Shown: piece after piece, positions 43,549 to 64,000 of the stretch | Numbering within the stretch: the first letter of the stretch is position 1 | Layout: the number at the start of each line of letters is the position of its first letter | Source of the DNA: Verrucomicrobiota bacterium | Lineage (GTDB): Bacteria; Verrucomicrobiota; Verrucomicrobiia; Limisphaerales; AAA164-E04 | Direction of reading: 5' to 3' | NCBI GenBank assembly: GCA_047947115.1 | Contig: CP170459.1 | Span: 5,504,001 to 5,568,000 of the forward strand | Length of the DNA stretch: 64,000 nt | Translations under genes and position numbers: made by a program | The notes under the pieces: model-generated | What the model was told of the DNA's origin: nothing | The model's database searches: none | What the model saw: only the letters and a program-made list of their open reading frames with translations

Positions 43549-46424
43549 TCATTGCGGACGAAACGGAGCTTCATTTGTAGGTTCTTCCTTCGCTGTCTTA
43601 GCGCGTCGTTCGGCGTCCTCTTTCATCCAGCGAAGCATGAGTTCGGGGGCATCCATACGCGGGTAATCGTGGAGTGCTTGCCAGTTGAATTCCTTGTCTA
43701 AAGGATCATAAGCCTTTAAGGGATCAAATATTTGTGGATGAACGTCAACAGCTTCATAAGCACTGAAATCTGGATCAGCTGTGAACATGTCCGACAGGTC
43801 GCTTGCCATCGCATCATACATGTTTATGGCCGGCATGCCGTGAATCAGATTGATGGTTTTAATAATAGACGGGATGGAGGTGTGGATATGTGAAACATGT
43901 CCGCGTCGTGCATATGGGCTGATGACCAGGCAAAGGCTGCGATGATGATCCACGTGATCTCTGCCATTTTGCGCGTCGTCTTCGGTAACGAAAATAGCCA
44001 TTTCCTTCCAGTAAGGTGTATGGCTGAGCAACTCAACCACCCGTCCCAGTGCAAGATCATTATCTGCCATATAAGATGCAAAGTAGGGATAGCCTTCCTC
44101 CGGACGTTCGGTAGCACCGTGGTCGTTTGGCAATGACATGGTAATGATACTGGGAAAAGGCTCCGCGCCGGACAGCCACTTTTCCTTTAAATCCAATTCA
44201 AACATATCAACGCGAAACTGATCGGGTATGTTTGTGTTGTAGGTCGCAAATCGTCGCGATGTATGTTCGAAGAGAGGGGCGGGAATCGGATAGTTCACAC
44301 CGATCTTCACGCCCGTCAGCGCAAATTCCTCTCCCCCTCTTCCGCCACTCCGGGCATCTCAAATCCGAGTCCAAAATTAAAGAAAGGAATTTCGTGACGT
44401 GCGAAATGATCCCAGAGGCTCCCCACCTGCATGTAGTCCTCCGGCAGTAACCCGGCTGAGGCCCCGGTCACCGCCAGTCTGCCGGGTGCGGACGAATCAT
44501 ACATGTAGCGTCTACGATTTCCATAAGATGCCGAGGTGCTTGTCTCACAGAACACCCCGGGATAGACCCCTTGCAACCAACGATGTCCATCAGCTGAATG
44601 ATCCGAATCACAATAAAAATTGTCCGAACTGGCAAATCGGCGCGCCAGTATCTGGTGGTTGGGCATGACGTTGACATTCTCAAGCACATCGTCAGGGCGC
44701 AGATTGGAGCGAACCGTCGCATTTACCCCGAAATCAGCCAAACTAGTTTCCGCCCGGGCATTTGGTAGTTCACCATAAATCTGGTCAAAGGTTCGATTCT
44801 CCTTAGCGATGAATACCGTGTATTTGATGGGAGAAGGATAAGCGCCTCGATAAGGTGGCACCGGATTGCGTTCTTTTGTTTCCCATGGTCTGCGAACACC
44901 CAGGTGCACGTTGTTTTCAATGACTTGCGCTGTCTCAGCTGGTAGCTGGGAATCCGTGGGGATGGGGAGGATGGATATCGTTCCCCGCATCAAGTTTCCC
45001 ATTCCGGAGCGTCCATCGAGGTCAACACCCGGCCCGCCATTTGGACCGGCCCCAAAACCCTTGGCATTGGCGACAATGAGCTGCTGTCCGTCTGGTGAAA
45101 CCGCCACTTTGCTGGGAAACCAACCAACGGGAATGTGACCAACCACCTCGAGGCTTTGGGTATCAATCACTCCGACGGCGTTGATGCCTGACTCCGCCAC
45201 GTATAATCTGTCCTTGTCTGGAGCCAGAGCCAAGCCAAATGGAATCACCCCTCGATAAACGTCCAACGGTTCGGGTAATCTCAAAGTGATTTCTTTCACT
45301 ACTTGATTCAGTGTGGTATCAATCACTGAAATGGAATCATTGTTTCCATTGGATACAAAAACGTGTCGACCGTCGCAGATTGTGGAATTAGGCGCCGCAC
45401 CGCCTATCGCAGGAATCCCTTCCACCATTTCACCAACTTGGATGCCGGTCTTAATTCGTGCAGTGATGCTTGCGTCATGTGGATCGGTAATGTCAATCGC
45501 ATAAACGGAAACCGATTCCTCCACGTTAGGATCCCCCAAGCCAGGCACGACCTTTCCTTCCGCCGTGGTTCCTTCTCTCATCTCTGGTGAATCATAGCCA
45601 AATGGAGGAAAACTGAGACCGGTCGTCATGAATTGCTTGGGATCAAATCCTTCAACTGTGCTGTATTCAAACATGCCGATGTTTGCGACATACAGTCTTG
45701 AACCATCCGGTGTGCAGGAGATCCCAAACGGGTATCGGCCGACTGAAATGACATCGATCACCTCCATGCTCGACGTGTCCAGACATATCACACGAAAATT
45801 CATTTGATCCACCACGTAAAGATGTTTTCCGTCGGGCGTCAGGGTCATGTCCCCCAAGTAGCTGTCCCGCCATTTTCGGCCTTCGAAATCGATATTCAAA
45901 TCAATCGTGCGTAAACGTTCTCGCCTTTCGTAATCCCAGACCATGACCGTACCGTCATCCCCTCCGGATGCGAAAAAAATCCTGGATGATGGGGCCTGTG
46001 GAATGGCCACCCCCATAAAGCAGGCATTTAGAACACCCTCATCTGTTTTCACGCCTTCAGGAATGGATGTGAACGAACGATCCTTCTGAAGTGGATTGGT
46101 GAGAATGGAAAAGGAAAACGGTTCAGTTCCACTGTTGACGGTAATGAGCACCCGAGCATCCGCTGCGAGCGCCAATCCGTAAGGATGTGGTTCGACCAGC
46201 ACCTGTGAACCGCGTGGGGTCAGAACACGTCCGTTTGGAATGACGGTCGTTCCTGTCGGAAAGATTTCACAATACCGCGTGCCTGCGGGAGCGGTCATGA
46301 CAAGTTTTGAGGCATTTTCTGTGTATGTCGCACCTCGGATGTGGCATAGACCCATTTTTACAAGGGCAATCAACGCGATAAATCGCAACCAAGGTGCGGG
46401 CCAATTATTCAAATATCTAAACAT
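43549..46424 (-). CDS. YVTN/YncE beta-propeller plus phosphoesterase protein, frameshifted at a G5 run (44333-44337)
   Basis: IPVGWFP, KENRTFDQ and SADGHRW in the 5' ORF; LPNDHG, ADNDLALG and EDDAQNGRDHVD in the 3' ORF; adding one G joins them. Confidence 0.82.
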
Positions 46425-47623: not shown

Positions 47624-49680
47624 ATGAAACTGATAAAACAAATGACTCTTGGTATGTCGCTTTTGCTGGCGCTCAGCGCCAATGCGGCAACGAACAATTC
47701 CGGGAATGCCCCAGCCTTTATCACCATTGACATCTGTTCCAATGGGATCGGTGATGGCGATGGAAATTTTGACGCACCGCGTATGGAACCGGAGGTGTTC
47801 GATATCGGATTGGATTTTGGAGCGGATGGAAGTGTGGACCGTTGGTTGTCCAATGAATCCGCCACCTACATGGGCCGAGGAAACAGTGATGTCATCCAAC
47901 CAGGTTCCTGGATTCGTCTGTATTTTTTTCAACTCGATGAGTTTACCGGGCAAAATGTGCAGGTCCATCTTGTTGATCGAAGTCAGGATTACTACATGGC
48001 CATCAATTCCATTCGTGTGAGCGGCGCCGATGGAAAGGTCATCTCCAATCCTCTCAAAAATGGATTCTTTGAAGATGGATTGACTGGCTGGAACGTCGTT
48101 GAATCATCGATTCAAAACCATGATACGCTGATTCATAAAGATACTGACGCGACATTCGTAAACTATAGTGGATCCTTTCTGTCCACGATGAGCAATCCTG
48201 ATTCCGGCGATTTCAGTGAAACAGCAGTCTTGGTTTCGGAGCCATTTCAACTTGCGCCAGTGACCAGTTTTATCTACGGCATGGTATCCGGTGGAGGCTC
48301 TGAGTTTGTCAACCTGCCGGGCGCCTTGGGCTCTGATAACAAATCAGGAGTCTATATTGATCTGGGCAGCGAAACTGAAGATCCGAATGGGCAGTATGAT
48401 GAAGGCGTCGATATTCCCCTGGTAGGTTTTTGGGGGGAGCCGCAGGAGGCGGTCGAAATGATTTTGCTTCCGTGTTCTTCAACACTTCGGGTAAAGAAGG
48501 ACTCAGGGCACAGGTGGTTGGGTTTGATGATTCCCTGGAATACCACATTTCCCTCGACGCATTCCGGATGAATTGGGACTGGGAAGAATCCATTATTGTC
48601 AATGGCGGATTCGATCAGGGCATTCCTACGCCAGAGAGTGATCCTTCCGCATTTGATTGGTTTGATGAAGTTGGGGATTTTCTCATGCCGAGTGATCACC
48701 CATCCGGATCCGTTCCCGGTTGGCAGATTAAAGGAGACACTTTCTTCTTTGATGCAAACGCCCGTAAAGATCACATGAGCGGGCGCACGTTTCTCGGAAC
48801 TGGTGGATTCGATTTGTTCAATACAGGTGCAGAAATTCGTTCTGATGTTTTCGTCATTCAAAACATCCCCGATGCGGCGACCAATGTGTTTGTTCAATTT
48901 GCTTCTGCTCAGGGAACAGACCGAATTCGTTACTCAAGTGAAGGAGCAGTGGCGTTTGCTCGCGTGGAACTTATCGTTGATGTGGATGGAAATGGCGAAT
49001 TTGGAGATGCTGCCGATTTCCGATATCTTCAAAGAAATCAAGGCATGGCTCCCAGCCAAAGCAATAGTGGTCGTGATCTATGGCATCACCCGGAATACCG
49101 TTGGTACATCAAAGAGGAGCACCAGGGAATGAGTGCCATATTCAGAGCCGAAGACAATTTTGGTCCCTTCAAAGCAAGCTGGGGATGGATGTGCATCGAT
49201 GATTTGTTTGTTTGGAATGGTCAATCGGCTGAATTGGCATTCCCGAACAGCGATTTCGAACAAGGGACATTGGACAACTGGAATGCTCAAATTTCCGGAG
49301 GTACCGGATTTGAAAGTTGGTTGTCAGGTTCGAAAAAATCCATTGAGGCCGGATTGGTGACACATAGCGTCATGAACAATCGAGTGGTGGAGATTGATGG
49401 TGATTTCGCCGCCGATACCGCTGCTCGCGAAACCGGAGGTGGAGATAGCGGCTTGGGAGTTTTAAGTTCCATACCATTTTCACTGCCCTCTCTTGCTCAA
49501 GGTGGTGGAGCTGCTTCCATCAAACTGACCGGCAACAATCAGGAAGTGGTCTTGGAATGGGAATCCGGGACATTGCACAGCGCTGAATCCGTTTCTGGCC
49601 CGTACAATGAAGTGACCGGCGCAACCAGTCCTCACCAAATAAGCCCATCGGGTACTGAGAAGTTTTTTATTGTCCGTTAG
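47624..49680 (+). CDS. Secreted beta-sandwich protein with shared C-terminal domain, frameshifted at a G6 run (48432-48437)
   Basis: Signal peptide ending ANA-A; NGFFEDGL, NGGFDQG and NSDFEQG modules; adding one G joins the two ORFs. Confidence 0.75.
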
Positions 49681-51011: not shown

Positions 51012-53669
51012 ATGAAACAATCCAAATTCTGGTTTCTATCGGTAATTGCAGCTGGTTCTCTGGCCATTCAGCCTGAGGTTTCAGCCCAATTGACCATATC
51101 GCCCGAAGCGGGAAAAAGCGCGGTGGTGGATGTTATCTGCCCTGATTGTGTGACGGCCGACTTGTTTCCAAGTCCCTATGTTGAACAAACGCTGCCTGGC
51201 ATCCGTGAAGCCTTGTCCTATATCGGCTTTGATCTGAAGGCAACCTTGCCTCAAGGATCCTCCATTACCAGCGCCGTTTTGGACGTCTTCGACCTCAACA
51301 CGGAAGTCGACGATCAATTTGTCAACGTTGTACTCCTGGATGTTCCATCCGATTGGGATCCCGAAACGTTGGATTTCAATCTTGCCAAGTCCACTTACGG
51401 TGCGACTTCTCAGGATTCCCCTTCCGCCACTGTGGGAGTTGATCCGGCCAAAGCATTGTGGCAGGGGCGAGTTGCCATGAATCTGGAATTCCAGCCAGGA
51501 CGAGCCACGGTTGGATCACGTGCCATTTTTGAAAGTCAGTCTCCTTCAACCGACGCCCAACTTGTCGCCGCATTGAATGCTGCATTGGCAAATGGCGACG
51601 GATACGTCACCTTTGTGCTATACGGAGAAACACTCGATGACAACAACATGGTGGGTATAGAATACGGGGACGGTGAGCCTGGCCCTACACTTACCCTTCA
51701 AATTGAAAGTGGAGCCACTTCGGGCGAAACAGTGGTGTTCGATTTTGACGGCAACGATCCGGCCGCCTGGACTTCCGTTCAATCATCGGCAAAGGAGAAT
51801 GGCCCTACGGATCTGGGCATTATCAGCACCGAGGATCCTACTGTTGGCAACTCTGTTCCTCCCACACCATTGACTGGAACCGGATTCATCGGTCCTGTTC
51901 CATTCGAGGCAGAAGACGGAACCAACACCCGTGACAATGCGCATGAAACGCTTGTCTACCGTTCACCTGAGTTCGAAATCTCTCCAAACGGAGAAATCTC
52001 ATTCGCCTTGATCGGTGGCGCCAAACCTGGTTTTGACCTGGATGCGATCAATCAGGACGGATTGCCTGCCGAATCGGATGGAAACGGTTCGATCGGTGTA
52101 GCATTGAGAAATGCTACGACTGGGGAGTACCTGACATTCAACACGCGTACAGAAAACGGTGGTCAAGCTTGGGAAACGATCATTCTCGATGAAGAGATCC
52201 TTGGTAATGTGATTGAAGTTGGCGAGTCCTACACGCTTGATTTCATCGACTACCACAGTGGTGGCTGGGGCTGGGCAGGCCTCGACAATGTCATTATCAA
52301 GCAAGGCACACCGATCACTAAATACGACTTTGACGATGAAACACTTCAAGGTTGGACCGTTGTTGCGGGCTCGAGTGTTGAAAATGGTCCGACACAATTG
52401 GGTGTGATCAGCGAGAACCACCCCACCGTGGGCAATTCGGTCCCCCCCGCACCTTTGAATGCACCCGCGTTCATAGGGCCCGTGCCTTTTGAGGCAGAAG
52501 ACGGAACCAACACGCGTGATAACGCGCACAGCACTCTTGTCGTGAGATCTCCGGAATTCAAAATTTATCAGGATGGTTTGATTTCGTTCGCACTGATCGG
52601 CGGTTCCAAACCCGGATTCAATATTGATAAAATCAACGCCAACGGCCTGCCGGAATCTTCCGACGGAAACGGCTCCATTGGCGTAGCGCTTCGCAAAGCC
52701 AGCACGGGTGAATACCTGAACTTCTATACCCGTGCCGAAAACGGCGGCCAAGCCTGGGAGACCATTATTTTGGGTGAAAACGAACTCCGTGGCATGATTG
52801 AGTTTGATGAATCATATACACTGGACTTCATCGATTACCACAGTGGAGGCTGGGGTTGGGCAGGCCTCGATGACGTCACCATTCAGGAAGGGACTCCCGT
52901 CATTCGTTACGATTTTGATGACGAAACACTGCAAGGATGGACGGTTGTTGGCGATTCGAGTGTTGAGAATGGTCCGACACGATTGGGTGTGATCAGCGAA
53001 AACGACCCGAACGTCGGCGATTCGGTTCCACCCACACCATTGAACTCACCCGCGTTTATCGGTCCTGTTCCGTTTGAAGCAGAAAATGGAAGCAATACCC
53101 GCGACGGTTCGCATAGCACCTTGGTGCTGCGTTCTCCTGAGTTCCCGCTCCATGCCGATGGTGAAATTTCTTTCGCACTCATCGGTGGCGCGAAGCCCGG
53201 ATTCGACATAGAGGCAGTCAACACCAACGGACTCCCAACCGATTCCGCCGGAGACGGCTCGATCGGTGTTGCACTCCGCAAAGCAAGCACGGGTGAATAC
53301 CTGACCTTCAACACCCGCTCCGAAAATGGCGGCCAAGCCTGGGAAACCATCATCCTCAACGGAGATGATTTCGGTGACATGATTGAGGAAGGAGAGCACT
53401 ACACTCTCGACTTCATCGACTATCACAGTGGTGGTTGGGGCTGGGCAGGAATGGATGATGTGATCATTCGCCCCGGAACACCCGCACCCGCTCAGGCTGG
53501 GGGTATTACGGGTGTCTCCATTCAGGACGGGTCCATCGTCATTGAATACTCCGGCCAATTGGAAGCATCTCAATCCGTAACAGGTGAGTGGACTCCAGTA
53601 AATGGCGCGACCAGTCCATACTCCGAGGCCATTACGGAAGATTCCAAATACTTCCGAATAGTTGAATAA
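51012..53669 (+). CDS. Secreted protein: DNRLRE-like N-domain, three 195-aa repeats, shared C-terminal domain
   Basis: YIGFDL..ITSAVLDVF; repeats with 585-nt period; each ends DYHSGGWGWAG. Confidence 0.85.
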   Translation: MKQSKFWFLSVIAAGSLAIQPEVSAQLTISPEAGKSAVVDVICPDCVTADLFPSPYVEQTLPGIREALSYIGFDLKATLPQGSSITSAVLDVFDLNTEVDDQFVNVVLLDVPSDWDPETLDFNLAKSTYGATSQDSPSATVGVDPAKALWQGRVAMNLEFQPGRATVGSRAIFESQSPSTDAQLVAALNAALANGDGYVTFVLYGETLDDNNMVGIEYGDGEPGPTLTLQIESGATSGETVVFDFDGNDPAAWTSVQSSAKENGPTDLGIISTEDPTVGNSVPPTPLTGTGFIGPVPFEAEDGTNTRDNAHETLVYRSPEFEISPNGEISFALIGGAKPGFDLDAINQDGLPAESDGNGSIGVALRNATTGEYLTFNTRTENGGQAWETIILDEEILGNVIEVGESYTLDFIDYHSGGWGWAGLDNVIIKQGTPITKYDFDDETLQGWTVVAGSSVENGPTQLGVISENHPTVGNSVPPAPLNAPAFIGPVPFEAEDGTNTRDNAHSTLVVRSPEFKIYQDGLISFALIGGSKPGFNIDKINANGLPESSDGNGSIGVALRKASTGEYLNFYTRAENGGQAWETIILGENELRGMIEFDESYTLDFIDYHSGGWGWAGLDDVTIQEGTPVIRYDFDDETLQGWTVVGDSSVENGPTRLGVISENDPNVGDSVPPTPLNSPAFIGPVPFEAENGSNTRDGSHSTLVLRSPEFPLHADGEISFALIGGAKPGFDIEAVNTNGLPTDSAGDGSIGVALRKASTGEYLTFNTRSENGGQAWETIILNGDDFGDMIEEGEHYTLDFIDYHSGGWGWAGMDDVIIRPGTPAPAQAGGITGVSIQDGSIVIEYSGQLEASQSVTGEWTPVNGATSPYSEAITEDSKYFRIVE
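51738..53483 (+). repeat. Three tandem 585-bp intragenic repeats
   Basis: FDFD/YDFD starts at 51738, 52323 and 52908. Confidence 0.92.
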
Positions 53670-53692
53670 ATCTTTTCTATATCAGTTGTCAA

Positions 53693-53737
53693 ACCGGCCT
53701 CCGATGAGGTTGTCCCCATCAGAGGCCGGTCTTTTTT
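53693..53737 (+). terminator. Rho-independent terminator
   Basis: ACCGGCCTC..GAGGCCGGT followed by CTTTTTT. Confidence 0.75.
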
Positions 53738-53779
53738 GATAGGGACACTGTTTCAGATCTTTTGAACAATCGAGTTGGA

Positions 53780-56700
53780 ATGCGATTTTCTGCAGAAACA
53801 CTTCATACCGGATTAAAAAAAGCCCTTGTCCTATTGTTGTGGATGGGCTCACTGGTTGTAGCATGCTCAGACGAGGACGCTGCCAGAGGTGAGGCGAAAA
53901 CCATTCAACCTGGCATCGCCACCGCGCCCGGTTTGAAAGAAGCCAGCGGTCGTTATGTAGCGCCGCTTGCCGATGCCATGCATCGTGTTGATCCGGAGCA
54001 AGACGGATGGGAGTCGGAGGTCTTCAGCGAAAACGCAAGTGGAAAACTCAAAAAATGGGCCAAAGCGCTGACACAACCTCCACAAACATCTTCCTACCCC
54101 AAAACGCACCTCTTCGCCAGCCCGGTGAATCTTGGATTGAAACCAAAGGATCTTGGTCTGGTATTTAAGAACGCATCGTTTGAAGTAAAACGCGCCCATC
54201 ATTTCCAAACGCTTGGGCAAGGACATCCTAACGAACTGACAGAATCGTTCATGAAAAGCCTGTTCGACGGACTCCCAAAACATGTCGAACTCAAACTATT
54301 CAAAGTGGCAATCGACACATCGAGTGTGTTCACACGTGTCTATTTCCATGCCAACGGATTTCAATCCGGCGCCCGAAACCAGGTGAATGCTGAATGGAAG
54401 GTAGAATGGACACGGAATACGCAAGAGCCATTGTTAAAGTCCATTGAAGCCATTTCGCATGAAGAAATAGTAGCCATCACGACCGGGGAAGCACCACTTT
54501 ATGAAGACTGCACCGAGGCGGTCCTTGGGCAGAATACAAGTTATCGAGAACAAATACTCCACGGAACGGATCATTGGAGGACCCGGCTTAGTCGTGACAT
54601 GGGTCTTGATGTGATCGCTCACCATGGAATGGCTTTGGGGGATTTGAACGGAGACGATCTGGAAGACCTTTACCTTTGCCAGCAGGGAGGCCTCCCAAAT
54701 CGACTCTTCCTACGAAGCGCCGACGGCACCCTGAGGGATGTGACAGAGTCGAGCCGAACCGGTTGGTTGGATTACTCCACCAGTGCCCTGCTCGTTGATT
54801 TTGACAATGATGGCTACCGAGATCTCGTGGTTTGCCTGGAAGATCAAATCGTTTTCATGAGCAACGACGGGTTAGCACGGTTTACGGTAAGGAATCAAAA
54901 GCGCACTGCGGCGCAAACGTTTTCCATGACGGCGGCGGACTATGATTTGGACGGAGACCTCGATTTGTTTGTTTGTGGCTACAACCCCTCCCACGATTTC
55001 GCACAAGCCTCAGTCATGGGAGAACCCGTTCCTTACCATGATGCAGAAAATGGTGGTCGCAATTTGTTGTTTCGAAATGAAGGGAACTGGAAGTTTAACG
55101 ATGTCACGAATGCAACCGGTTTGAATGTTCAAAACAATCGTTTCAGTTTTGCGGCGACCTGGATGGATTTTGATCGGGATGGAGACCCAGACCTGTATGT
55201 GGCCAATGACTACGGGCGAAACAATTTCTATCGAAACAACGCCGGCATCTTCACCGAAATTTCTGCTGCTTTGGGGGTGGAAGATATGTCTGCCGGAATG
55301 TCCGCAACATGGACAGATGTAAACAGGGATGGCAATTTGGATATTTATGTCAGCAACATGTTTTCCGCTGCAGGAAACCGTATTGCGTTTCATGATCAAT
55401 TCAAACCAGGAGTCGATCCATCAACACTGCAAGGATTTCGTCGTCATGCTCGCGGCAACACCTTGTACTTGGGTTCGGACAATGCTGGCCCCTTTCAGGA
55501 TGCGAGTGAAGACATGGGTGTGTTCATGGGACGTTGGGCTTGGGGATCAAGATTTGTCGACTTCGACCAGGATGGCTGGGAGGACCTGGTGGTTGCGAAC
55601 GGTTTCATCACCACCGAGGATACTGGCGATTTGTGAAGTGTCTATTGGCGGCAGGTCGTGTCGCAATCACCGGTTGAATCTACAAGCAATGATCAGGCTT
55701 CCAGCTATCGCCAGGGCTGGGCTGCTCTGAATCAAATGCTGCACGAAGGAAAATCTTTCAGCGGCCATGAACGAAACTGTGCTTTTCTGAACTTGGGAGG
55801 AAATTCCTTTGCGGATGTATCTGGTCTCATCGGGTTTAATTTTGACGAGGATGGAAGAACAGTTGTATCGAGCGATTGGGACTTCGATGGAGATCTGGAT
55901 TTGTGGACGACCGCGCGCACCGCACCTAGGTTGAGGTTCTTAAAAAACAACAGTGCCGCAGAGCAAAAAAACTTCTTGAGTGTTCGATTGGTCGGCAATG
56001 GCGTGGAGAGCAATCGTGATGCAGTCGGAGCCATCGTGGAACTCTATCTGAAGAATGAAAAAACACCGCTCATTCGCACGGTGACTGCCGGGGATGCTTT
56101 CATCTCCCAGAACTCCCAATGGCTCACCTTTCACTACAGTCCAGACCAATCGATTCGAAACCTTTTCGTTCATTGGCCGGGAGGACAAAAACAGGTGGTG
56201 GATGAACTGATCTCAAAATCGTTTTACAAGATCCAACAAGGGAAAAAGGTAGAAATGTGGCGCCCGCCTTTCAGACCCATCGATATGAAAAGCGGCTTAA
56301 GCAAAGCAAATGCGTCCTCTGAACAGGCACGAATTGTCCTCACGGGGCGGCTACCCATCGTTCCGATCCATATCCGGGATGAACATTCAGAATCCGAGTT
56401 GCCGCAACAATGGTTAAAGGGTCCCTTGCTACTGAATCTTTGGGCTCCCTGGTGCCAGCCTTGTGTCGAGGAACTTTCGTCGTGGACCCAATCGGAGGAG
56501 ATCTTGCAGAACGCAGGCCTGCGTATAGTGGCCTTGAATGCCGATGGATCGGCTATCGATTCAGCCGAAAGATTGCTCCGGCGATTGCGTTTTCCATTTC
56601 ATTCTGCCCACGCAAAGCAGCAGACTGTTCTCAATCTGGATTGGTTCCAACGTTCATTTTTGGACCATTGGGCGCCACTCCCCATTCCATCCAGTTTCCT

Positions 56701-57625
56701 GATCGACCGGCAAGGCGACGTGGCCGTTATATATAAGGGACCTGTATCTCCTGAGCAGATATTGAAGGATATGAAGCTTCTTGATTTGAACATGAGTGAG
56801 CGTCGCGATGCGGCAATCCCTTTTGCTGGCAAATGGCTCAAACCGACGAGGTTTCCCAATCCCCTCCTGGTTAACGGTCAGTTTGTGGCCCACGACGCCA
56901 TCAGTGAAGGAACCACATATCTCCGGCGCTACCTCGAATCGGTGGATGACAAAAGTGTAGCATCTCCGGAACACATTGCGAAAATTGCGCATACGATTGG
57001 AACCTTGTTGGCAAAGTCCGAGGATCCATCAGCAGCCAAGTCTTACCTTGCCAAGGCGCTGCGGTTCGCACCCGATCATACGGGCTTGCGCATTGAACTT
57101 GCAGAACTGCTGCTCAGTAGTGCTTCTATTGACCATATCCAAGAGGCGATTGCCATTTTGAAGCCTGATCCAAAAGTTCAAGTGACCGATCCTGCGTCTC
57201 GTCGATTATTGAGTCAGGCATTTTTTTTGTGGGGTGAGTCACTCAAAAGCAGTCGTCAATATCCAGAAGCAGAACAGGCCTTTCGTCAATCGATTCAACT
57301 CGATCCAACTCAGGTAAAGGCTGCAGAAAAATTGGCATGGTTATTTGTCTCTCAAAACCCGGACCAAGGCCAACGGAAATCAAACGCCCTTGCCATTGCC
57401 GAACGTCTATGCGCGATCACCCATCGTAAACATGCCGGCTATCTGGATTTGCTGGCTTTCATTCAAGCCTTACATGGCAAACTCGAACAAGCTATCCGCA
57501 CCGCGGAAGAGGCTCAAACGCTTCGAGCGGATGCGCCGGATTCCAAGGCTTTCAAGGAGGGCAAAAATCGGATGGATCATTACCACAAGCGTCTCATTCC
57601 AGATCTGCGATCCGAATCGGATTAA
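53780..57625 (+). CDS. FG-GAP / ASPIC-UnbV / TlpA-like redoxin / TPR protein read through an in-frame TGA (55634-55636); candidate selenoprotein
   Basis: Both ORFs share a frame; DxDxDGxxDL repeats occur on both sides of the TGA; NRDAVGA (UnbV), LWAPWCQPC, TPR-like helices; possible lipobox VVA-C. Confidence 0.8.
55638..55670 (+). promoter_or_regulatory. Putative bacterial SECIS hairpin
   Basis: GTG(tct)ATT(g)GCGGCA-GGTCG-TGTCGC-AAT-CAC; G-led loop with 17 nt between the UGA and the loop. Confidence 0.62.
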
Positions 57626-58111: not shown

Positions 58112-61057
58112 ATGATCGCAAAGATATCACGCTTCGCCATGGCATTGCCCATCGCGTCAATAGCGCTCTTGGCAAACTTGAATGCACAGGTCCTCTTTCA
58201 AGAGGATTTTGAATCACTGCCCCTGGGCACGAATGTTGAAGAAGGCTTCGGCTTGGAAGTCTTCCAGGAAATTCCACCCAAAGGTTGGGACATCGTCAAT
58301 GAAGGCGTTCTTGCAGTCACCGAAGACGCCGATGGAAACCCCGTTTCCCGCATGGACAATGGTGTCTATGAATGGGTGGGTTGGAGTTTCGCTGACAAAC
58401 AATGGTGGGTCAATGTGGCCGGTGACCAACGTCGCTCCGAATTCGTCAATGGACAAGGCACCGTCATGATTGCTGATCCGGATGAATGGGACGATCAATC
58501 ACACCCAGATTCGGCCTCCAACGGATGGTATCGCACATTTATCACCACCCCAAGCATCGACCTTTCCGGTCAGGACGCAAACAGCACGGTCCTAGTTTTT
58601 GATTCCAGCTGGCGTGATGAATTCGATGGCAACTATCATCAAACCGTCAATATCACCGCCAGTTATGACGGTGGAGCCGCATCTGAAATTCTTCTCTGGG
58701 AATCCGACCCTGACAGCGACAACTTCAAGGATGACACACCGAACGAAACTGTCATTCTGGGACTCAACAATCCCGGAGGAGCTTCCAATCTGAAACTTAC
58801 CTTTGGTATGTTCGAGGCTGGTAACGACTGGTGGTGGGCAGTGGACAACATCAAAGTTGCCGTACCCCCAGTAGCGACCGGTGTTTCCGCGACAGCTTCC
58901 AGCTTCGACCTTTTACTTCTCGAAGGTCTTGGCAAGACGATTGACGAAAGTACTCTAACCATCCAAGTGGACGGCGCAGACGTAACCGGTTCGACCGTTC
59001 GTAATGATCTGAGTGGTGATTTCACTCAGCTTGTCTTCAGTTACGCGCATGATTCCCTCTGGGTTTCAGAATCCTTGCACACGATTAACTACTCCTTCAC
59101 GACTGGTGACGGAGTCCAAATCAGCAGCACCATCGATTTCACCGTGCCTCGCTTTGTGACCATTCCCGCAGGGCTAAAATTGGCGGATGTGGACACCAGC
59201 AACGAAGGATTCATCATGCGTGTCATTCAGGCTGACCAAGGCTTGGCCACCAGTATCGCTGTTCGTGAAGATCATTTGGCTGGCAGACTTCTGGACGCCA
59301 ACGGAGATCCTCTTGAAAATTATGCATTCACCCCGGACACACTCTATCCTCAGGTTGACGGAGAAGAATCTACCTGGTTTGTTCCTCTGATCAATTTGGA
59401 ACAAGATGGAAATGATCAAGGTGAATTCAATGGGGGTGCGACAGCTCCTATGGATGTGTTGGACAACATTATTCCAGGAATCCCTGGTGACGCCACTGCC
59501 GACACAGACAACATCACCGCTGAGATCTTCACTGTTGTTCGCATCCCTGAACCAGGAATGTACACCTTCGGATTCAACAGTGATGACGGTTTCCAAGTGA
59601 CAGCCGGCAACTTGCTCGATATCGAAGAACGTTTGGTTCTGGGTGAATTCGACGGAAGTCGTGGTTCTTCAACCACATCTTTTCCAGTTGCTTTTGAAGA
59701 AGCTGGCGATTATCAGATGCGCGCACTTTGGTTCGAAGGAACAGGTGGAGCCAACCTGGAATGGTTCACCATCACTCCGAACAAAGCCCTGTTGAATGAC
59801 ACAGACAATGGCGGATTGAAGACCTTTGCCTTCCGCTCCGGAAATCCTCTGGCTTTAACTTCTGTTTCCCCAGCCAATGGCACAGGTGGAGCGCCTTTGG
59901 CTCCAACCGTATCTTTCACCTTGGTGGACGGTTCCACAACTTTGGACGCAGCATCCATCGCGATGACCTTCGGCGGCGCCGATGTGACTCCTGAAGTGAA
60001 TACCACCGATGGCACACACGTCATCACCTACACATCCAGTAAGACTTACGGAAATGCCGAAGAGGTCAATGCTACTCTGACTTTCAGCGATTCCACCGGT
60101 CGATCCCGCACGGCCAGTACAACCTTCCGCACCTTGCGTGATGATTTGTTGGCTTATTGGGACTTCAACGATGATTCAGACGCTTCCAGCTCGGAAGACT
60201 TGAATCCCAACATTGATCTGCCTGCTTCATTGGTAGGTAACGCTGCATTCAGTGCTGATGCCGCTGGTGTTTCCGGGGCAGCTGGTGACCGTTCCATGTC
60301 CTTTGGTGACCCTCAGGACGGATCCAGCCTCTTGGTCCAAAGCGATTTCTTCAATGAAGCCGCTTACCAGGACACCGTCACGATTGCCTTGTGGCAGAAA
60401 TGGAATACCGATGTCACCGACAGTTCTGCCTTCTGGGTTGTATCGCCTACCACAGGTGGCAGCGCCCGCAGTGCTCAAGCCCATATTCCATGGAGCAATG
60501 GAAACGTCTATTTCGATACTTCCGGTTGCTGTGATGCTGCTACACAGCGTCTGAACCAGGCCATTACCGATTTCGATCCAAACTTTGATTGGACCGAATG
60601 GCATCACTTCACTTTCGTGAAAAACAAGGAAGTGAAGCAGATCTATGTTGATGGTCAGCCTTGGTTGGAAACCATCAATACCGGCGCCTTGCCAACCGAC
60701 AACGTTCAGCTCTGGATCGGGGCAGCCCCTCAGAGTGGCAATAGCATTGGTGGTTGGATCGATAACTTTGCCGTTTTCTCCAGCGCATTGACCGCGGATG
60801 AGATCTCTCAGTTGTTCGCTGGTGCGGCACCCCAAGACATCAAACCATGGGCAGAGTTCGCCGCATCATCTCCAGCCCCAACCTCAGGCATCAGTGGTAT
60901 TGCTGTTGTTGACGGTGGAGTTACCATCTCCTTCGAAGGTGTGCTTAAAAGCTCAACAACCGTCAACGGCTCCTACGCTCCCGTTGCGGGCGCCAGAGCT
61001 CCGTCCTATACAGTGAATCCGGACGTTGCCGAAACCATGTTCTTTATCGCTGAATAA
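58112..61057 (+). CDS. Secreted PA14-like / LamG (ConA-like) domain protein with shared C-terminal domain
   Basis: FGFNSDDGF..WFEGTGGANLEW (PA14-like); LAYWDFND..WHHFTFV..IYVDG..GWIDNFAVFSSALT (LamG). Confidence 0.85.
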   Translation: MIAKISRFAMALPIASIALLANLNAQVLFQEDFESLPLGTNVEEGFGLEVFQEIPPKGWDIVNEGVLAVTEDADGNPVSRMDNGVYEWVGWSFADKQWWVNVAGDQRRSEFVNGQGTVMIADPDEWDDQSHPDSASNGWYRTFITTPSIDLSGQDANSTVLVFDSSWRDEFDGNYHQTVNITASYDGGAASEILLWESDPDSDNFKDDTPNETVILGLNNPGGASNLKLTFGMFEAGNDWWWAVDNIKVAVPPVATGVSATASSFDLLLLEGLGKTIDESTLTIQVDGADVTGSTVRNDLSGDFTQLVFSYAHDSLWVSESLHTINYSFTTGDGVQISSTIDFTVPRFVTIPAGLKLADVDTSNEGFIMRVIQADQGLATSIAVREDHLAGRLLDANGDPLENYAFTPDTLYPQVDGEESTWFVPLINLEQDGNDQGEFNGGATAPMDVLDNIIPGIPGDATADTDNITAEIFTVVRIPEPGMYTFGFNSDDGFQVTAGNLLDIEERLVLGEFDGSRGSSTTSFPVAFEEAGDYQMRALWFEGTGGANLEWFTITPNKALLNDTDNGGLKTFAFRSGNPLALTSVSPANGTGGAPLAPTVSFTLVDGSTTLDAASIAMTFGGADVTPEVNTTDGTHVITYTSSKTYGNAEEVNATLTFSDSTGRSRTASTTFRTLRDDLLAYWDFNDDSDASSSEDLNPNIDLPASLVGNAAFSADAAGVSGAAGDRSMSFGDPQDGSSLLVQSDFFNEAAYQDTVTIALWQKWNTDVTDSSAFWVVSPTTGGSARSAQAHIPWSNGNVYFDTSGCCDAATQRLNQAITDFDPNFDWTEWHHFTFVKNKEVKQIYVDGQPWLETINTGALPTDNVQLWIGAAPQSGNSIGGWIDNFAVFSSALTADEISQLFAGAAPQDIKPWAEFAASSPAPTSGISGIAVVDGGVTISFEGVLKSSTTVNGSYAPVAGARAPSYTVNPDVAETMFFIAE

Positions 61058-62223: not shown

Positions 62224-64000
62224 TCACTCCTTGATGCTCACAGAACGATTGTCACGTTGGCGCAACAACCGCCGCAACGGTTCCTCGCTTAATTTCCCTG
62301 AATCATCCATTAGAAGTGCCGCATTCTTTGTGAAGAAAAGATTCTTCTGTTTCCACATTTCCATCGTATTCCTGTAGCTTTCCAGTCGAACCGGGTATTC
62401 ATCCATAAAATCAAAGGGCGGCAAATCATTAGGCCAGGCGGATTCCAGACTCCTGCGCCCAATATATCGAACCACCGGATAGGGATCCATCAACAACTGG
62501 GAAAGAAACGGCGGCATCCATTGCACGCCCGAAATCTCCTGCGCCGGTTTCCATCCCATGTGCCAGGCCACAATGGCACGTTGCGCTGCATGTCCTTTTA
62601 ACATCCACAAAAGCGCCGCTGAAACGCTTTTCTGCTCATCGGTCAGGGACAGGCTTGGAGCATTGTAACGATCCATCATGTGGGTTTGAGTCCACTCCAG
62701 AGTCTTGTCCAGATGACATAAATTACAGGCATTGGGCACGCCAAATACGGCGCTTCCCTGCAGTTTTGGTGATTTCATCTCGTGACTGCGAATGGCTCCA
62801 AACAGGGCATAAGTTGTGTGAGGCATATGGCAGTTCAAGCAATCGCTTCCAGAGGAGTCAGGCGCATGAAACGTGTGTTCGCTGATCCGGTCGTTGTATT
62901 TTGCCTCCTGATGACATTGTACACAGGCCTGGTTGGAATCCATTCCCGATTTCAATTGATCTTTCGGAGGAGATTGATGCATGGAATGACAAGAAAGGCA
63001 GGACATTTTTCCCGATAAATAGCATTCGGACGATGACATGGCTGTGAACTCGCGCCCGCCCGCAAGAATGGTTCCGTCCTCCCACCAACGTTCCTGAAAG
63101 AACTGAGGATTCTTCTCAAGTTCATCCCATCGCTCGGGAGGATCTCCTTCTTTCGGGTAGTGGATGTAATAACGCGTATCGAACAGGTTGTCACCCGGTT
63201 TGAATTGGACGCCTTCGTGGGCAATTTTCATTCCGACCCTGTTGTTGGGTATGAATACCCCATGGCACTGACCACACACATGACTGGAACGTTCATGGTT
63301 TAACTTGGCTGGGTTCACGATGGTAGTGTCATCCTTCGATCCCAGGTGGGTTTGATATCGGTGGATCGGATTCTGATGGAATGCAATATGCTCTTTGCCT
63401 GGTCCGTGACAGGCCTCACAGCTGATGCCCAATTCCGCCACTTTCGTTTCCAACATCCCCGTTTTATCATTCAATCCGGGATTCCAACCAGTACCGTGGC
63501 ATCGAATACAATGATGATTCCATTGTGTCACCATGCGCTCCTGGTCATCCGGCCCCCTCATAAATGCCGCTTCCCGGGGAATCCAACGCTGGTCTTTGAT
63601 CAGATAAACTAGTGGAAGTGTCTGCAAAATATTGTCCATACGAGGACTTTCCACCCAATAGGTCTGATAATGATGTGATCCGGTCGTCAGCACCACTTGG
63701 CGATTCACATGAGGAATCCTGGTCAAGTCTCCCCCCTTGCCGCCTTGTACGGCCTGCATCAGCAGATCCGGATCCGGCATGTTGGCCCAATAGGTCTGGT
63801 TGGTTTGCGTCACTGTGTAATCAAGCCCCTCTGATGAGATGGTTTGCCCACTAAAGTCTCCAAGAACATTACCTTCTACAGGTAACATGGTCATGGAACG
63901 ATGGAATGTCCGCATCCAGGAGGCATGTTCGTCTGGATGACAAGTTTTGCAAGTATCGGACGAGGAATAATTCCCAAAACCACCCAATTCCGGGAGTTGA
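62224..64000 (-). CDS. Multiheme c-type cytochrome (5' end outside the window)
   Basis: Eight CxxCH motifs: CKTCH, CIRCH, CEACH, CGQCH, CLSCH, CVQCH, CLNCH, CNLCH. Confidence 0.9.
   Translation of the reverse strand, partial: QLPELGGFGNYSSSDTCKTCHPDEHASWMRTFHRSMTMLPVEGNVLGDFSGQTISSEGLDYTVTQTNQTYWANMPDPDLLMQAVQGGKGGDLTRIPHVNRQVVLTTGSHHYQTYWVESPRMDNILQTLPLVYLIKDQRWIPREAAFMRGPDDQERMVTQWNHHCIRCHGTGWNPGLNDKTGMLETKVAELGISCEACHGPGKEHIAFHQNPIHRYQTHLGSKDDTTIVNPAKLNHERSSHVCGQCHGVFIPNNRVGMKIAHEGVQFKPGDNLFDTRYYIHYPKEGDPPERWDELEKNPQFFQERWWEDGTILAGGREFTAMSSSECYLSGKMSCLSCHSMHQSPPKDQLKSGMDSNQACVQCHQEAKYNDRISEHTFHAPDSSGSDCLNCHMPHTTYALFGAIRSHEMKSPKLQGSAVFGVPNACNLCHLDKTLEWTQTHMMDRYNAPSLSLTDEQKSVSAALLWMLKGHAAQRAIVAWHMGWKPAQEISGVQWMPPFLSQLLMDPYPVVRYIGRRSLESAWPNDLPPFDFMDEYPVRLESYRNTMEMWKQKNLFFTKNAALLMDDSGKLSEEPLRRLLRQRDNRSVSIKE

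Follow-up and report, generated by a model that had tools for sequence, protein, structure and literature searches.

We identified a real gene that very probably encodes selenocysteine (Sec) and that belongs to a large uncatalogued family, in which ordinary recoding machinery is combined with an unusual protein fold and an unusual substitution pattern. The gene lies in a 64,000-nucleotide stretch of a Verrucomicrobiota genome (hereafter, the window; assembly GCA_047947115.1, contig CP170459.1, positions 5,504,001 to 5,568,000), where two open reading frames (ORFs) on the plus strand, 53762/53780-55636 and 55658-57625, share one frame. Reading through from 53780 to 57625 yields a protein of 1,281 residues, similar in length to its paralog and homologs, with a single internal TGA at codon 619 (55634-55636) in the context ITTEDTGDL-TGA-SVYWRQVVSQSP. 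As the initial annotation of this stretch had described, the TGA falls inside an FG-GAP β-propeller, and because it sits between FG-GAP repeats, the whole propeller is contained in neither half. Its statement that the second ORF has a GTG as its sole start also held, with that GTG located at 55658, 21 nt downstream of the UGA. On the strength of the sequence comparisons described below, we consider it very likely that Sec is inserted at the UGA and that one polypeptide is made.

Conservation of the UGA and of the hairpin behind it

The codon was found to be strongly conserved among homologs, which is the pattern that the initial annotation had named as support for Sec. A first scan of genome contigs, using patterns taken from the query's own flanks, returned 70 loci, 54 of which were strong matches (44-94% identity; record titles assign 38 to Verrucomicrobiota, 13 to Planctomycetota, and 1 to Acidobacteriota, with 2 unlabelled), and all 54 carried TGA. 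One further locus did not cover the column, and among the 15 weak loci, L086 had TGA and the others could not be reliably aligned. A second scan covered 7 of the 64 parts of a metagenome collection and relied on an alignment of 16 sense-codon proteins, with patterns placed away from the site; here, TGA occurred in 76 of 79 loci and a sense codon in 3. TAA or TAG was never observed at the column in the strong genome loci or the metagenome loci. Near-copies were present in both sets, such that the 130 TGA loci represent 126 distinct 120-nt contexts. The true terminal stops of 102 of these genes were mixed (40 TGA, 35 TAA, and 27 TAG), and an ordinary stop would therefore not always be TGA.

The same genome contains a full-length paralog (L021, at G000:C1:3505079-3508825, minus strand) that is 34.5% identical and has TGA at the same column, a CxxC motif, and a hairpin variant whose loop-closing pair is G-C rather than A-U. 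None of the other family matches among the 30 tblastn matches listed in this genome has a stop at the column, and we also noted ~20 further ASPIC/UnbV paralogs without one. Across 150 genomes of the same order, each match under E 1e-30 has one TGA. A 300-genome sample of the phylum gave no match at E 1e-20 except this genome, and the family is therefore patchy; a viral collection held no relative. From the weaker matches, we obtained a second group, subfamily B (L123-L137, e.g., L123:2269-4749, plus strand), whose proteins of ~820 to 980 residues contain no thioredoxin or TPR domains. All 15 fetched loci of this subfamily read PDG-U-[TPS]-C-LW, i.e., TGA at the same column within a U-x-C arrangement, and an extra Cys was seen 17 residues downstream in 6 of 13 aligned members. 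L086 represents a third type with TGA at the same column.

Just downstream of the UGA, the sequence GCGGCA/GGTCG/TGTCGC at 55648-55664 can form a hairpin with a 6-bp stem and a GGUCG loop that starts 17 nt after the UGA, and the 39 nt after the UGA have a fold energy of -9.2 kcal/mol. In homologs, the 6-bp upper stem (+15-20 with +26-31) is the only conserved part. The upper stem and the 17-nt spacing that the initial annotation had claimed were thus retained, and its outer ATT/AAT pairing was not, as 96 of the 126 distinct contexts have G at column 14 and A at column 32. Covariation was evaluated in two separate sets. In set 1 (50 distinct rows), 97.7% of the stem cells were paired and 9 compensatory cells fell in 2 pairs, and in set 2 (71 rows), 96.5% were paired, with 17 compensatory cells over 3 pairs, where the compensatory counts are open to inflation by relatedness among the rows. 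None of 500 shuffles reached the pairing or compensatory values in either set, and slid controls scored far lower; a measure of further pair types was not significant in set 2 (57 of 500 shuffles). One stem pair was seen as G-U, A-U, C-G, G-C, U-G, and U-A, with the encoded residue changing along with the pair. Locus L093 is off by one base in alignment A1, which leaves the stem columns unaffected.

Codon choice displayed a similar constraint. Synonymous codons are nearly fixed in the stem and loop (CAG 114/117, GTC 115/125, GTG 109/111, and TCG 96/103), as compared with 60, 40, 34, and 22%, respectively, in the same genes. The Leu codon before the UGA is TTG in 110 of 123 cases (16% in the same genes), and 124 of 126 contexts have AGY as the Ser codon behind the UGA, a constraint on the flanking codons (55631-55639) that the upper stem does not explain. 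The hairpins of the other types differ in sequence: that of subfamily B has 7 bp and a CGUGUC loop, with a compensatory variant in L134, and that of L086 has a GGUC loop. A simple hairpin rule with a minimum stem of 4 recognized 50 of the 54 strong genome loci and 74 of the 76 metagenome loci with TGA; with a minimum stem of 5, it recognized hairpins in this genome after 27 of 1,939 TGA, 13 of 1,265 TAA, and 7 of 640 TAG stops. Bacterial Sec insertion sequence (SECIS) elements are described as having a loop of 3 to 9 nt, a stem of 4 to 16 bp, a G in the first two loop positions, a distance of 16 to 37 nt from the UGA, and an energy of at most -7.5 kcal/mol (PMC13188914, Fig. 2 legend), and the hairpin reported here fits this consensus with its 5-nt loop, 6 bp, 17 nt, and -9.2 kcal/mol. 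The selD gene of this genome shares the 17-nt spacing and has a loop that begins with GG.

Sec machinery in carrier genomes and other readings of the UGA

The initial annotation had seen no sel genes in the window and had pointed to the remainder of the genome, where we found selA, selB, selD (itself with TGA), and the gene for tRNA-Sec (selC). Other sites with a TGA and a hairpin were noted at G000:C1 3463806 (+), 1612214 (-), 3793083 (-), 953557 (-), and 3993863 (-); besides selD, the motifs at these sites resemble those of formate dehydrogenase, of a reductase subunit with UxxC, and of a peroxiredoxin-like protein with UxxC, and one is a GP-U-C motif. We then considered the genomes of 50 of the 55 TGA loci, leaving out three same-genome duplicates and two near-copies, and each of these 50 carriers had at least one Sec gene: 45 had selA, four of the other five had selB over the cut-off, and the fifth had tRNA-Sec and selD. 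By comparison, selA occurred in 16 of the 300 phylum genomes. In the order sample, a selA match was present in 20 of 22 TGA-bearing genomes (one of them a fragment under the cut-off) versus 36 of 128 others; because related genomes are not independent, we attach no co-occurrence statistic to these counts. In four genomes (G351, G492, G387, and G368), the gene adjoins a sel operon (selC-selD-selA-selB), with family genes beside sel genes at L143:4270-9838, L146:1162-6734, L145:2209-10518, and L132:23-4411. G351, one of the two TGA-bearing genomes of the order sample that gave no selA match, carries selC, selD, and a selA fragment directly behind the gene. ARAGORN detected no tRNA-Sec in the 55 loci with 4-kb flanks, and the linkage to sel genes is therefore occasional and not the rule.

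These data also bear on the other ways in which the UGA might be understood. A near-cognate or suppressor tRNA, or a changed genetic code, could place a different residue (Trp or Cys) at this codon, and the base after the UGA is indeed A in 124 of 126 contexts; a UGA followed by A is a leaky stop context. However, TGA is a normal stop in this genome, where it ends 1,939 of the 3,844 long frames, Trp appears at the column in no sense homolog, the sole tRNA found with a UCA anticodon has the Sec shape, and the family both co-occurs and is linked with sel genes, which together make such decoding highly improbable. We assign a still smaller probability to two separate genes, in which translation would stop at the UGA and restart at the GTG 21 nt downstream to give halves that form a split propeller. 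Of the 126 distinct contexts, 109 do have a GTG at codon +8, the halves stand as separate proteins in databases, and some premature termination is expected at Sec codons in general. Yet, 14 of the 126 contexts have no start codon at that position, and the seven codons from UGA to GTG vary synonymously while encoding the same amino acids, which match those of intact sense homologs. Moreover, the codon is never TAA or TAG, the GTG is itself part of the covarying stem, and carriers are confined to Sec-encoding genomes.

A pseudogene or a sequencing error might be suspected given that this is a single-contig environmental genome and that other genes in the window look frameshifted. However, contigs from runs X4 and X8 (DNA) and X15 (RNA library), which come from three studies, span codon 619 with all of their differing letters elsewhere (the X16 contig, with three differing letters at unlisted positions, is not counted with them). 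Because independent contigs of three studies span the codon unchanged, the TGA is not a sequencing error, in answer to the doubt about the raw reads raised in the initial annotation. The RNA-library contigs cover parts of the gene including codon 619, a coverage from which transcription cannot be shown. With the TGA kept in these independent assemblies and in 130 homologous loci, and with synonymous changes exceeding replacement changes relative to L022 (131 versus 61 upstream and 130 versus 103 downstream), a pseudogene or error is ruled out, its probability being negligible.

Architecture of the protein and a proposed role for the predicted Sec619

The read-through protein starts with a signal peptide (53780..53866) that ends in a lipobox-like VVAC (Cys29), from which we infer export and a lipid anchor; an N-terminal hydrophobic stretch is present in 32 of 37 full-length TGA homologs and a lipobox pattern in 10 of 56. 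It is followed by an N-terminal α/β domain (residues ~60 to 235; 53957..54484), confidently modeled with a long antiparallel sheet, for which a Pfam search returned no family. Atlas look-alikes of the corresponding domain of a homolog are clusters of unnamed proteins of 175 to 233 residues, which may be stand-alone forms of this domain or fragments. Next come the CRTAC1-like FG-GAP propeller that the TGA interrupts (residues ~240 to 723; 54497..55948; Pfam PF13517 and PF01839), an ASPIC/UnbV domain (residues 748 to 812; 56021..56215; PF07593, E 2.5e-7), a ResA/TlpA-like thioredoxin domain (residues 877 to 991; 56408..56752; Pfam, solved-structure search, and Foldseek) with a CQPC motif (Cys892 and Cys895; 56453-56464), and TPR repeats (residues ~1068 to 1253; 56981..57538; domain searches), all on the plus strand.

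A structure model of residues 60 to 1030, with Cys in place of Sec, reached a predicted local distance difference test score (pLDDT) of 94.3 and a predicted template modeling score (pTM) of 0.94, and the four domains are therefore predicted to form a single packed unit that spans the codon. In the model, the predicted Sec619 is the first residue of a helix within an insertion that follows a strand of one blade. Conserved insertions with the motifs PYHD, ANDxGRN, NMFS..RHARGN, and ERN follow the matching strands of other blades and thus likely meet on one face, as judged from the repeat layout. Foldseek returned murine CRTAC1 (9ETN) as the best match (E 2.3e-23, template modeling score 0.70 by target, 15% identity), followed by ResA for the thioredoxin domain; a sequence search of solved structures matched the thioredoxin domain only.

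Homologs with a sense codon provide a view of what can replace Sec. In 40 full-length database proteins (E < 1e-25), the residue at the column is Ser in 8, Glu and Gly in 6 each, Cys in 5, Asp in 4, His, Asn, and Ala in 3 each, and Arg and Gln in 1 each, the best full-length match being a Cys form. Of 150 cluster representatives, 127 cover the column, with Glu (40), Asp (26), Ser (20), Ala (14), Asn (11), Gln (5), Met (4), Cys (3), and four others; the two sets have about a dozen proteins in common. Cys forms exist as a minority and sense forms mostly carry Glu, Asp, or Ser, which counts against a textbook version of the TGA/Cys pairs contemplated in the initial annotation. The thioredoxin CxxC is present in 53 of 53 and 61 of 63 TGA forms that reach this domain, as opposed to 11 of 39 and 9 of 100 sense forms (scored by pattern in the 61/63 and 9/100 sets). 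Likewise, Lys172 is kept in 100% of the TGA group versus 6% of the sense group, and Asn533, Ser661, and Glu898 also track with TGA, whereas the invariant polar residues D421, N476, D477, R534, W623, R624, and E664 are common to both groups. On a tree of the propeller core, from which the site's own columns were removed, at least 4 changes of state are needed for Sec and 6 for CxxC. The tracking of CxxC with TGA suggests a redox relay, through a correlation that is strong and not phylogenetically independent. Hence, of the proposal in the initial annotation, a Sec possibly acting in relay with a CQPC thioredoxin domain within an exported protein of ~1280 residues, the insertion of Sec is supported by the TGA, the hairpin, and the sel genes, and the relay is only suggested. 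The refuting conditions listed in that annotation were all resolved in favor of Sec, as the TGA persists in independent assemblies, close homologs share it together with a covarying hairpin, and Sec machinery occurs in carrier genomes.

We propose the following mechanism. SelB, bound to the hairpin just downstream, would decode the UGA as Sec, yielding one likely exported protein of 1,281 residues. The propeller insertions and the N-terminal domain would hold the substrate, on which the selenolate at the helix N terminus could attack an oxidized group (a peroxide, sulfoxide, or disulfide), after which Cys892/Cys895 would reset Sec619. In subfamily B, which has no thioredoxin domain, the neighboring Cys of U-x-C would take the first step. 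Homologs that lost Sec mostly lost CxxC too and may have become non-redox binders. We think it probable, with considerable reservation, that the protein acts as an extracytoplasmic thiol/selenol oxidoreductase that is reset by its own thiols. The explanation as a whole, in which a SelB-decoded Sec619 serves as a redox-active nucleophile on the propeller and is likely re-reduced by the protein's own CxxC, we likewise hold to be somewhat favored.

Several observations weigh against this explanation. Taken as a single sequence, the hairpin does not outperform its shuffles (z between -0.28 and +0.57 in four windows), and its support therefore comes from the homolog comparison; in addition, the hairpin rule misses 4 of the 54 and 2 of the 76 TGA loci and accepts 1 of the 3 sense loci. 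G437 carries a TGA gene, but no selA, selB, selC, or selD was found in this genome, where a contig ends ~125 to 140 nt before the place that selC occupies in two congeners. Cys is rare in the sense forms (5 of 40 and 3 of 127, where a database C may mask an annotated U and TGC is confirmed in DNA for L140 and L141 only) and Glu/Asp lead (66 of 127), unlike in typical redox selenoproteins; alignment of Sec with Cys in sense-codon homologs is the customary criterion ("nearly all" in PMC13188914, section 6). Well-supported branches of the tree hold only 1 independent Sec-CxxC pair, and the sign test is not significant. Furthermore, the CxxC is retained by several Ser, His, Arg, and Glu forms and is missing from 2 of the 4 Cys forms that extend into the domain. 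Some of these data would be explained if Sec were inserted but served as an anionic metal ligand or a non-redox nucleophile in the propeller pocket, with the thioredoxin domain keeping Sec reduced or serving another client. Such a role would fit the Glu/Asp in 66 of 127 sense homologs (with His in 3 of 40 and Cys in 3 of 127), the in-genome paralogs with Glu at or near the column, and the seven polar residues that are invariant in both groups. It is less easily reconciled with the tracking of CxxC with TGA and with the U-x-C of subfamily B, and Ser, Ala, Gly, and Asn are also common at the column, which looks like a relaxed site and not a conserved ligand. We regard it as the main alternative, unlikely but to be taken seriously.

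A broader and more tentative claim, which we are slightly inclined to doubt, is that the CRTAC1-like propellers of Verrucomicrobiota, Planctomycetota, and Acidobacteriota constitute a large unrecognized class of exported selenoenzymes, with Sec in a propeller pocket, at least three subfamilies with different SECIS sequences at one column, and Sec trading with Glu, Asp, or Ser and not with Cys. If true, this would break the Sec/Cys rule behind selenoprotein discovery and would point to a superfamily without assigned enzyme activity as the holder of a catalytic site that comes with a fused reductase of its own. More generally, the gene reported here would add a widespread, often multicopy family of very large exported selenoproteins with a fold not listed for Sec. 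Gene callers split such genes, leaving database halves that end at ..DL or start near MSQSP, and because Cys homologs are rare, pipelines based on Sec/Cys pairs would tend to miss the family, so that other such families may be hidden. Codon 619 points to a probable active-site residue of the ASPIC/UnbV-CRTAC1 superfamily, whose function can be tested by a single-codon change, and the family offers a reason for the Sec machinery being kept in aquatic Verrucomicrobiota and Planctomycetota.

Genomic neighborhood and relation to known systems

We found no conserved gene neighborhood that points to a substrate. The commonest neighbor group occurs in 17 loci, and its one tested member is a CotH kinase/lamin-tail protein. 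In the window, the upstream neighbor (51012-53669, plus strand) encodes a secreted protein that contains three internal repeats and gave weak carbohydrate-binding matches, and a PA14/LamG protein (58112-61057, plus strand) and a multiheme cytochrome c (62224-63999, minus strand) lie on the other side; none of these three shows any sign of traveling with the family. Between the upstream gene and the read-through gene, a long inverted repeat followed by a T run (53692-53740) looks terminator-like by eye and is unlisted by the promoter/terminator scan, the result of which was at chance level. Farther away, overlapping or abutting ORF pairs at 47624-49680 (plus strand) and 43549-46424 (minus strand) each resemble one exported protein interrupted by a frameshift or an assembly error.

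The initial annotation did not recognize the family among classical selenoproteins, and our comparisons agree. Table 1 of PMC13188914, with 119 selenoprotein families, contains no FG-GAP, CRTAC1, or ASPIC/UnbV protein, and no NCBIfam 20.0 model, including those for ResA/TlpA, scored over its cut-off for the read-through protein. Searches for the terms FG-GAP, ASPIC, CRTAC1, and VCBS gave none in PMC13188914 and deep-Sep (PMC12013277) and none in the main text and supplement of BSepDB (PMC13326102), and the available portion of PMC4807772 mentions neither FG-GAP nor ASPIC. Literature searches, whose coverage is partial and cannot prove absence from print, returned no paper linking Sec to the CRTAC1-like propeller family and, within the same partial coverage, no report of Sec or enzyme activity for CRTAC1/ASPIC-UnbV proteins. 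Genes of the CRTAC1 family are described beside hydrazine-synthase homologs, in a setting unrelated to Sec (in the part of PMC12758564 available).

The gene thus resembles three known systems and differs from each. Like bacterial SelB/SECIS selenoprotein genes (PMC13188914, section 5; e.g., the genome's own selD), it has an in-frame UGA, a hairpin inside the ORF with a G-led 5-nt loop at 17 nt, and sel genes in the host; unlike catalogued selenoproteins, it would carry Sec in a propeller insertion, and its sense homologs are mostly not Cys forms. With CRTAC1/ASPIC-UnbV proteins (PF13517 and PF07593; PDB 9ETN), it shares an FG-GAP propeller followed by ASPIC/UnbV and a predicted extracytoplasmic location, but it has in addition an N-terminal domain, helical insertions bearing the predicted Sec, and fused thioredoxin and TPR domains. 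Last, it has the thioredoxin fold with WxxWCxxC of the ResA/TlpA/DsbE thiol-disulfide oxidoreductases and matches ResA structures at the domain level, whereas in contrast to the Sec forms of those proteins (UxxC; WAxxUGC, NF041054), its CxxC is all Cys and the predicted Sec lies 273 residues upstream, in another fold.

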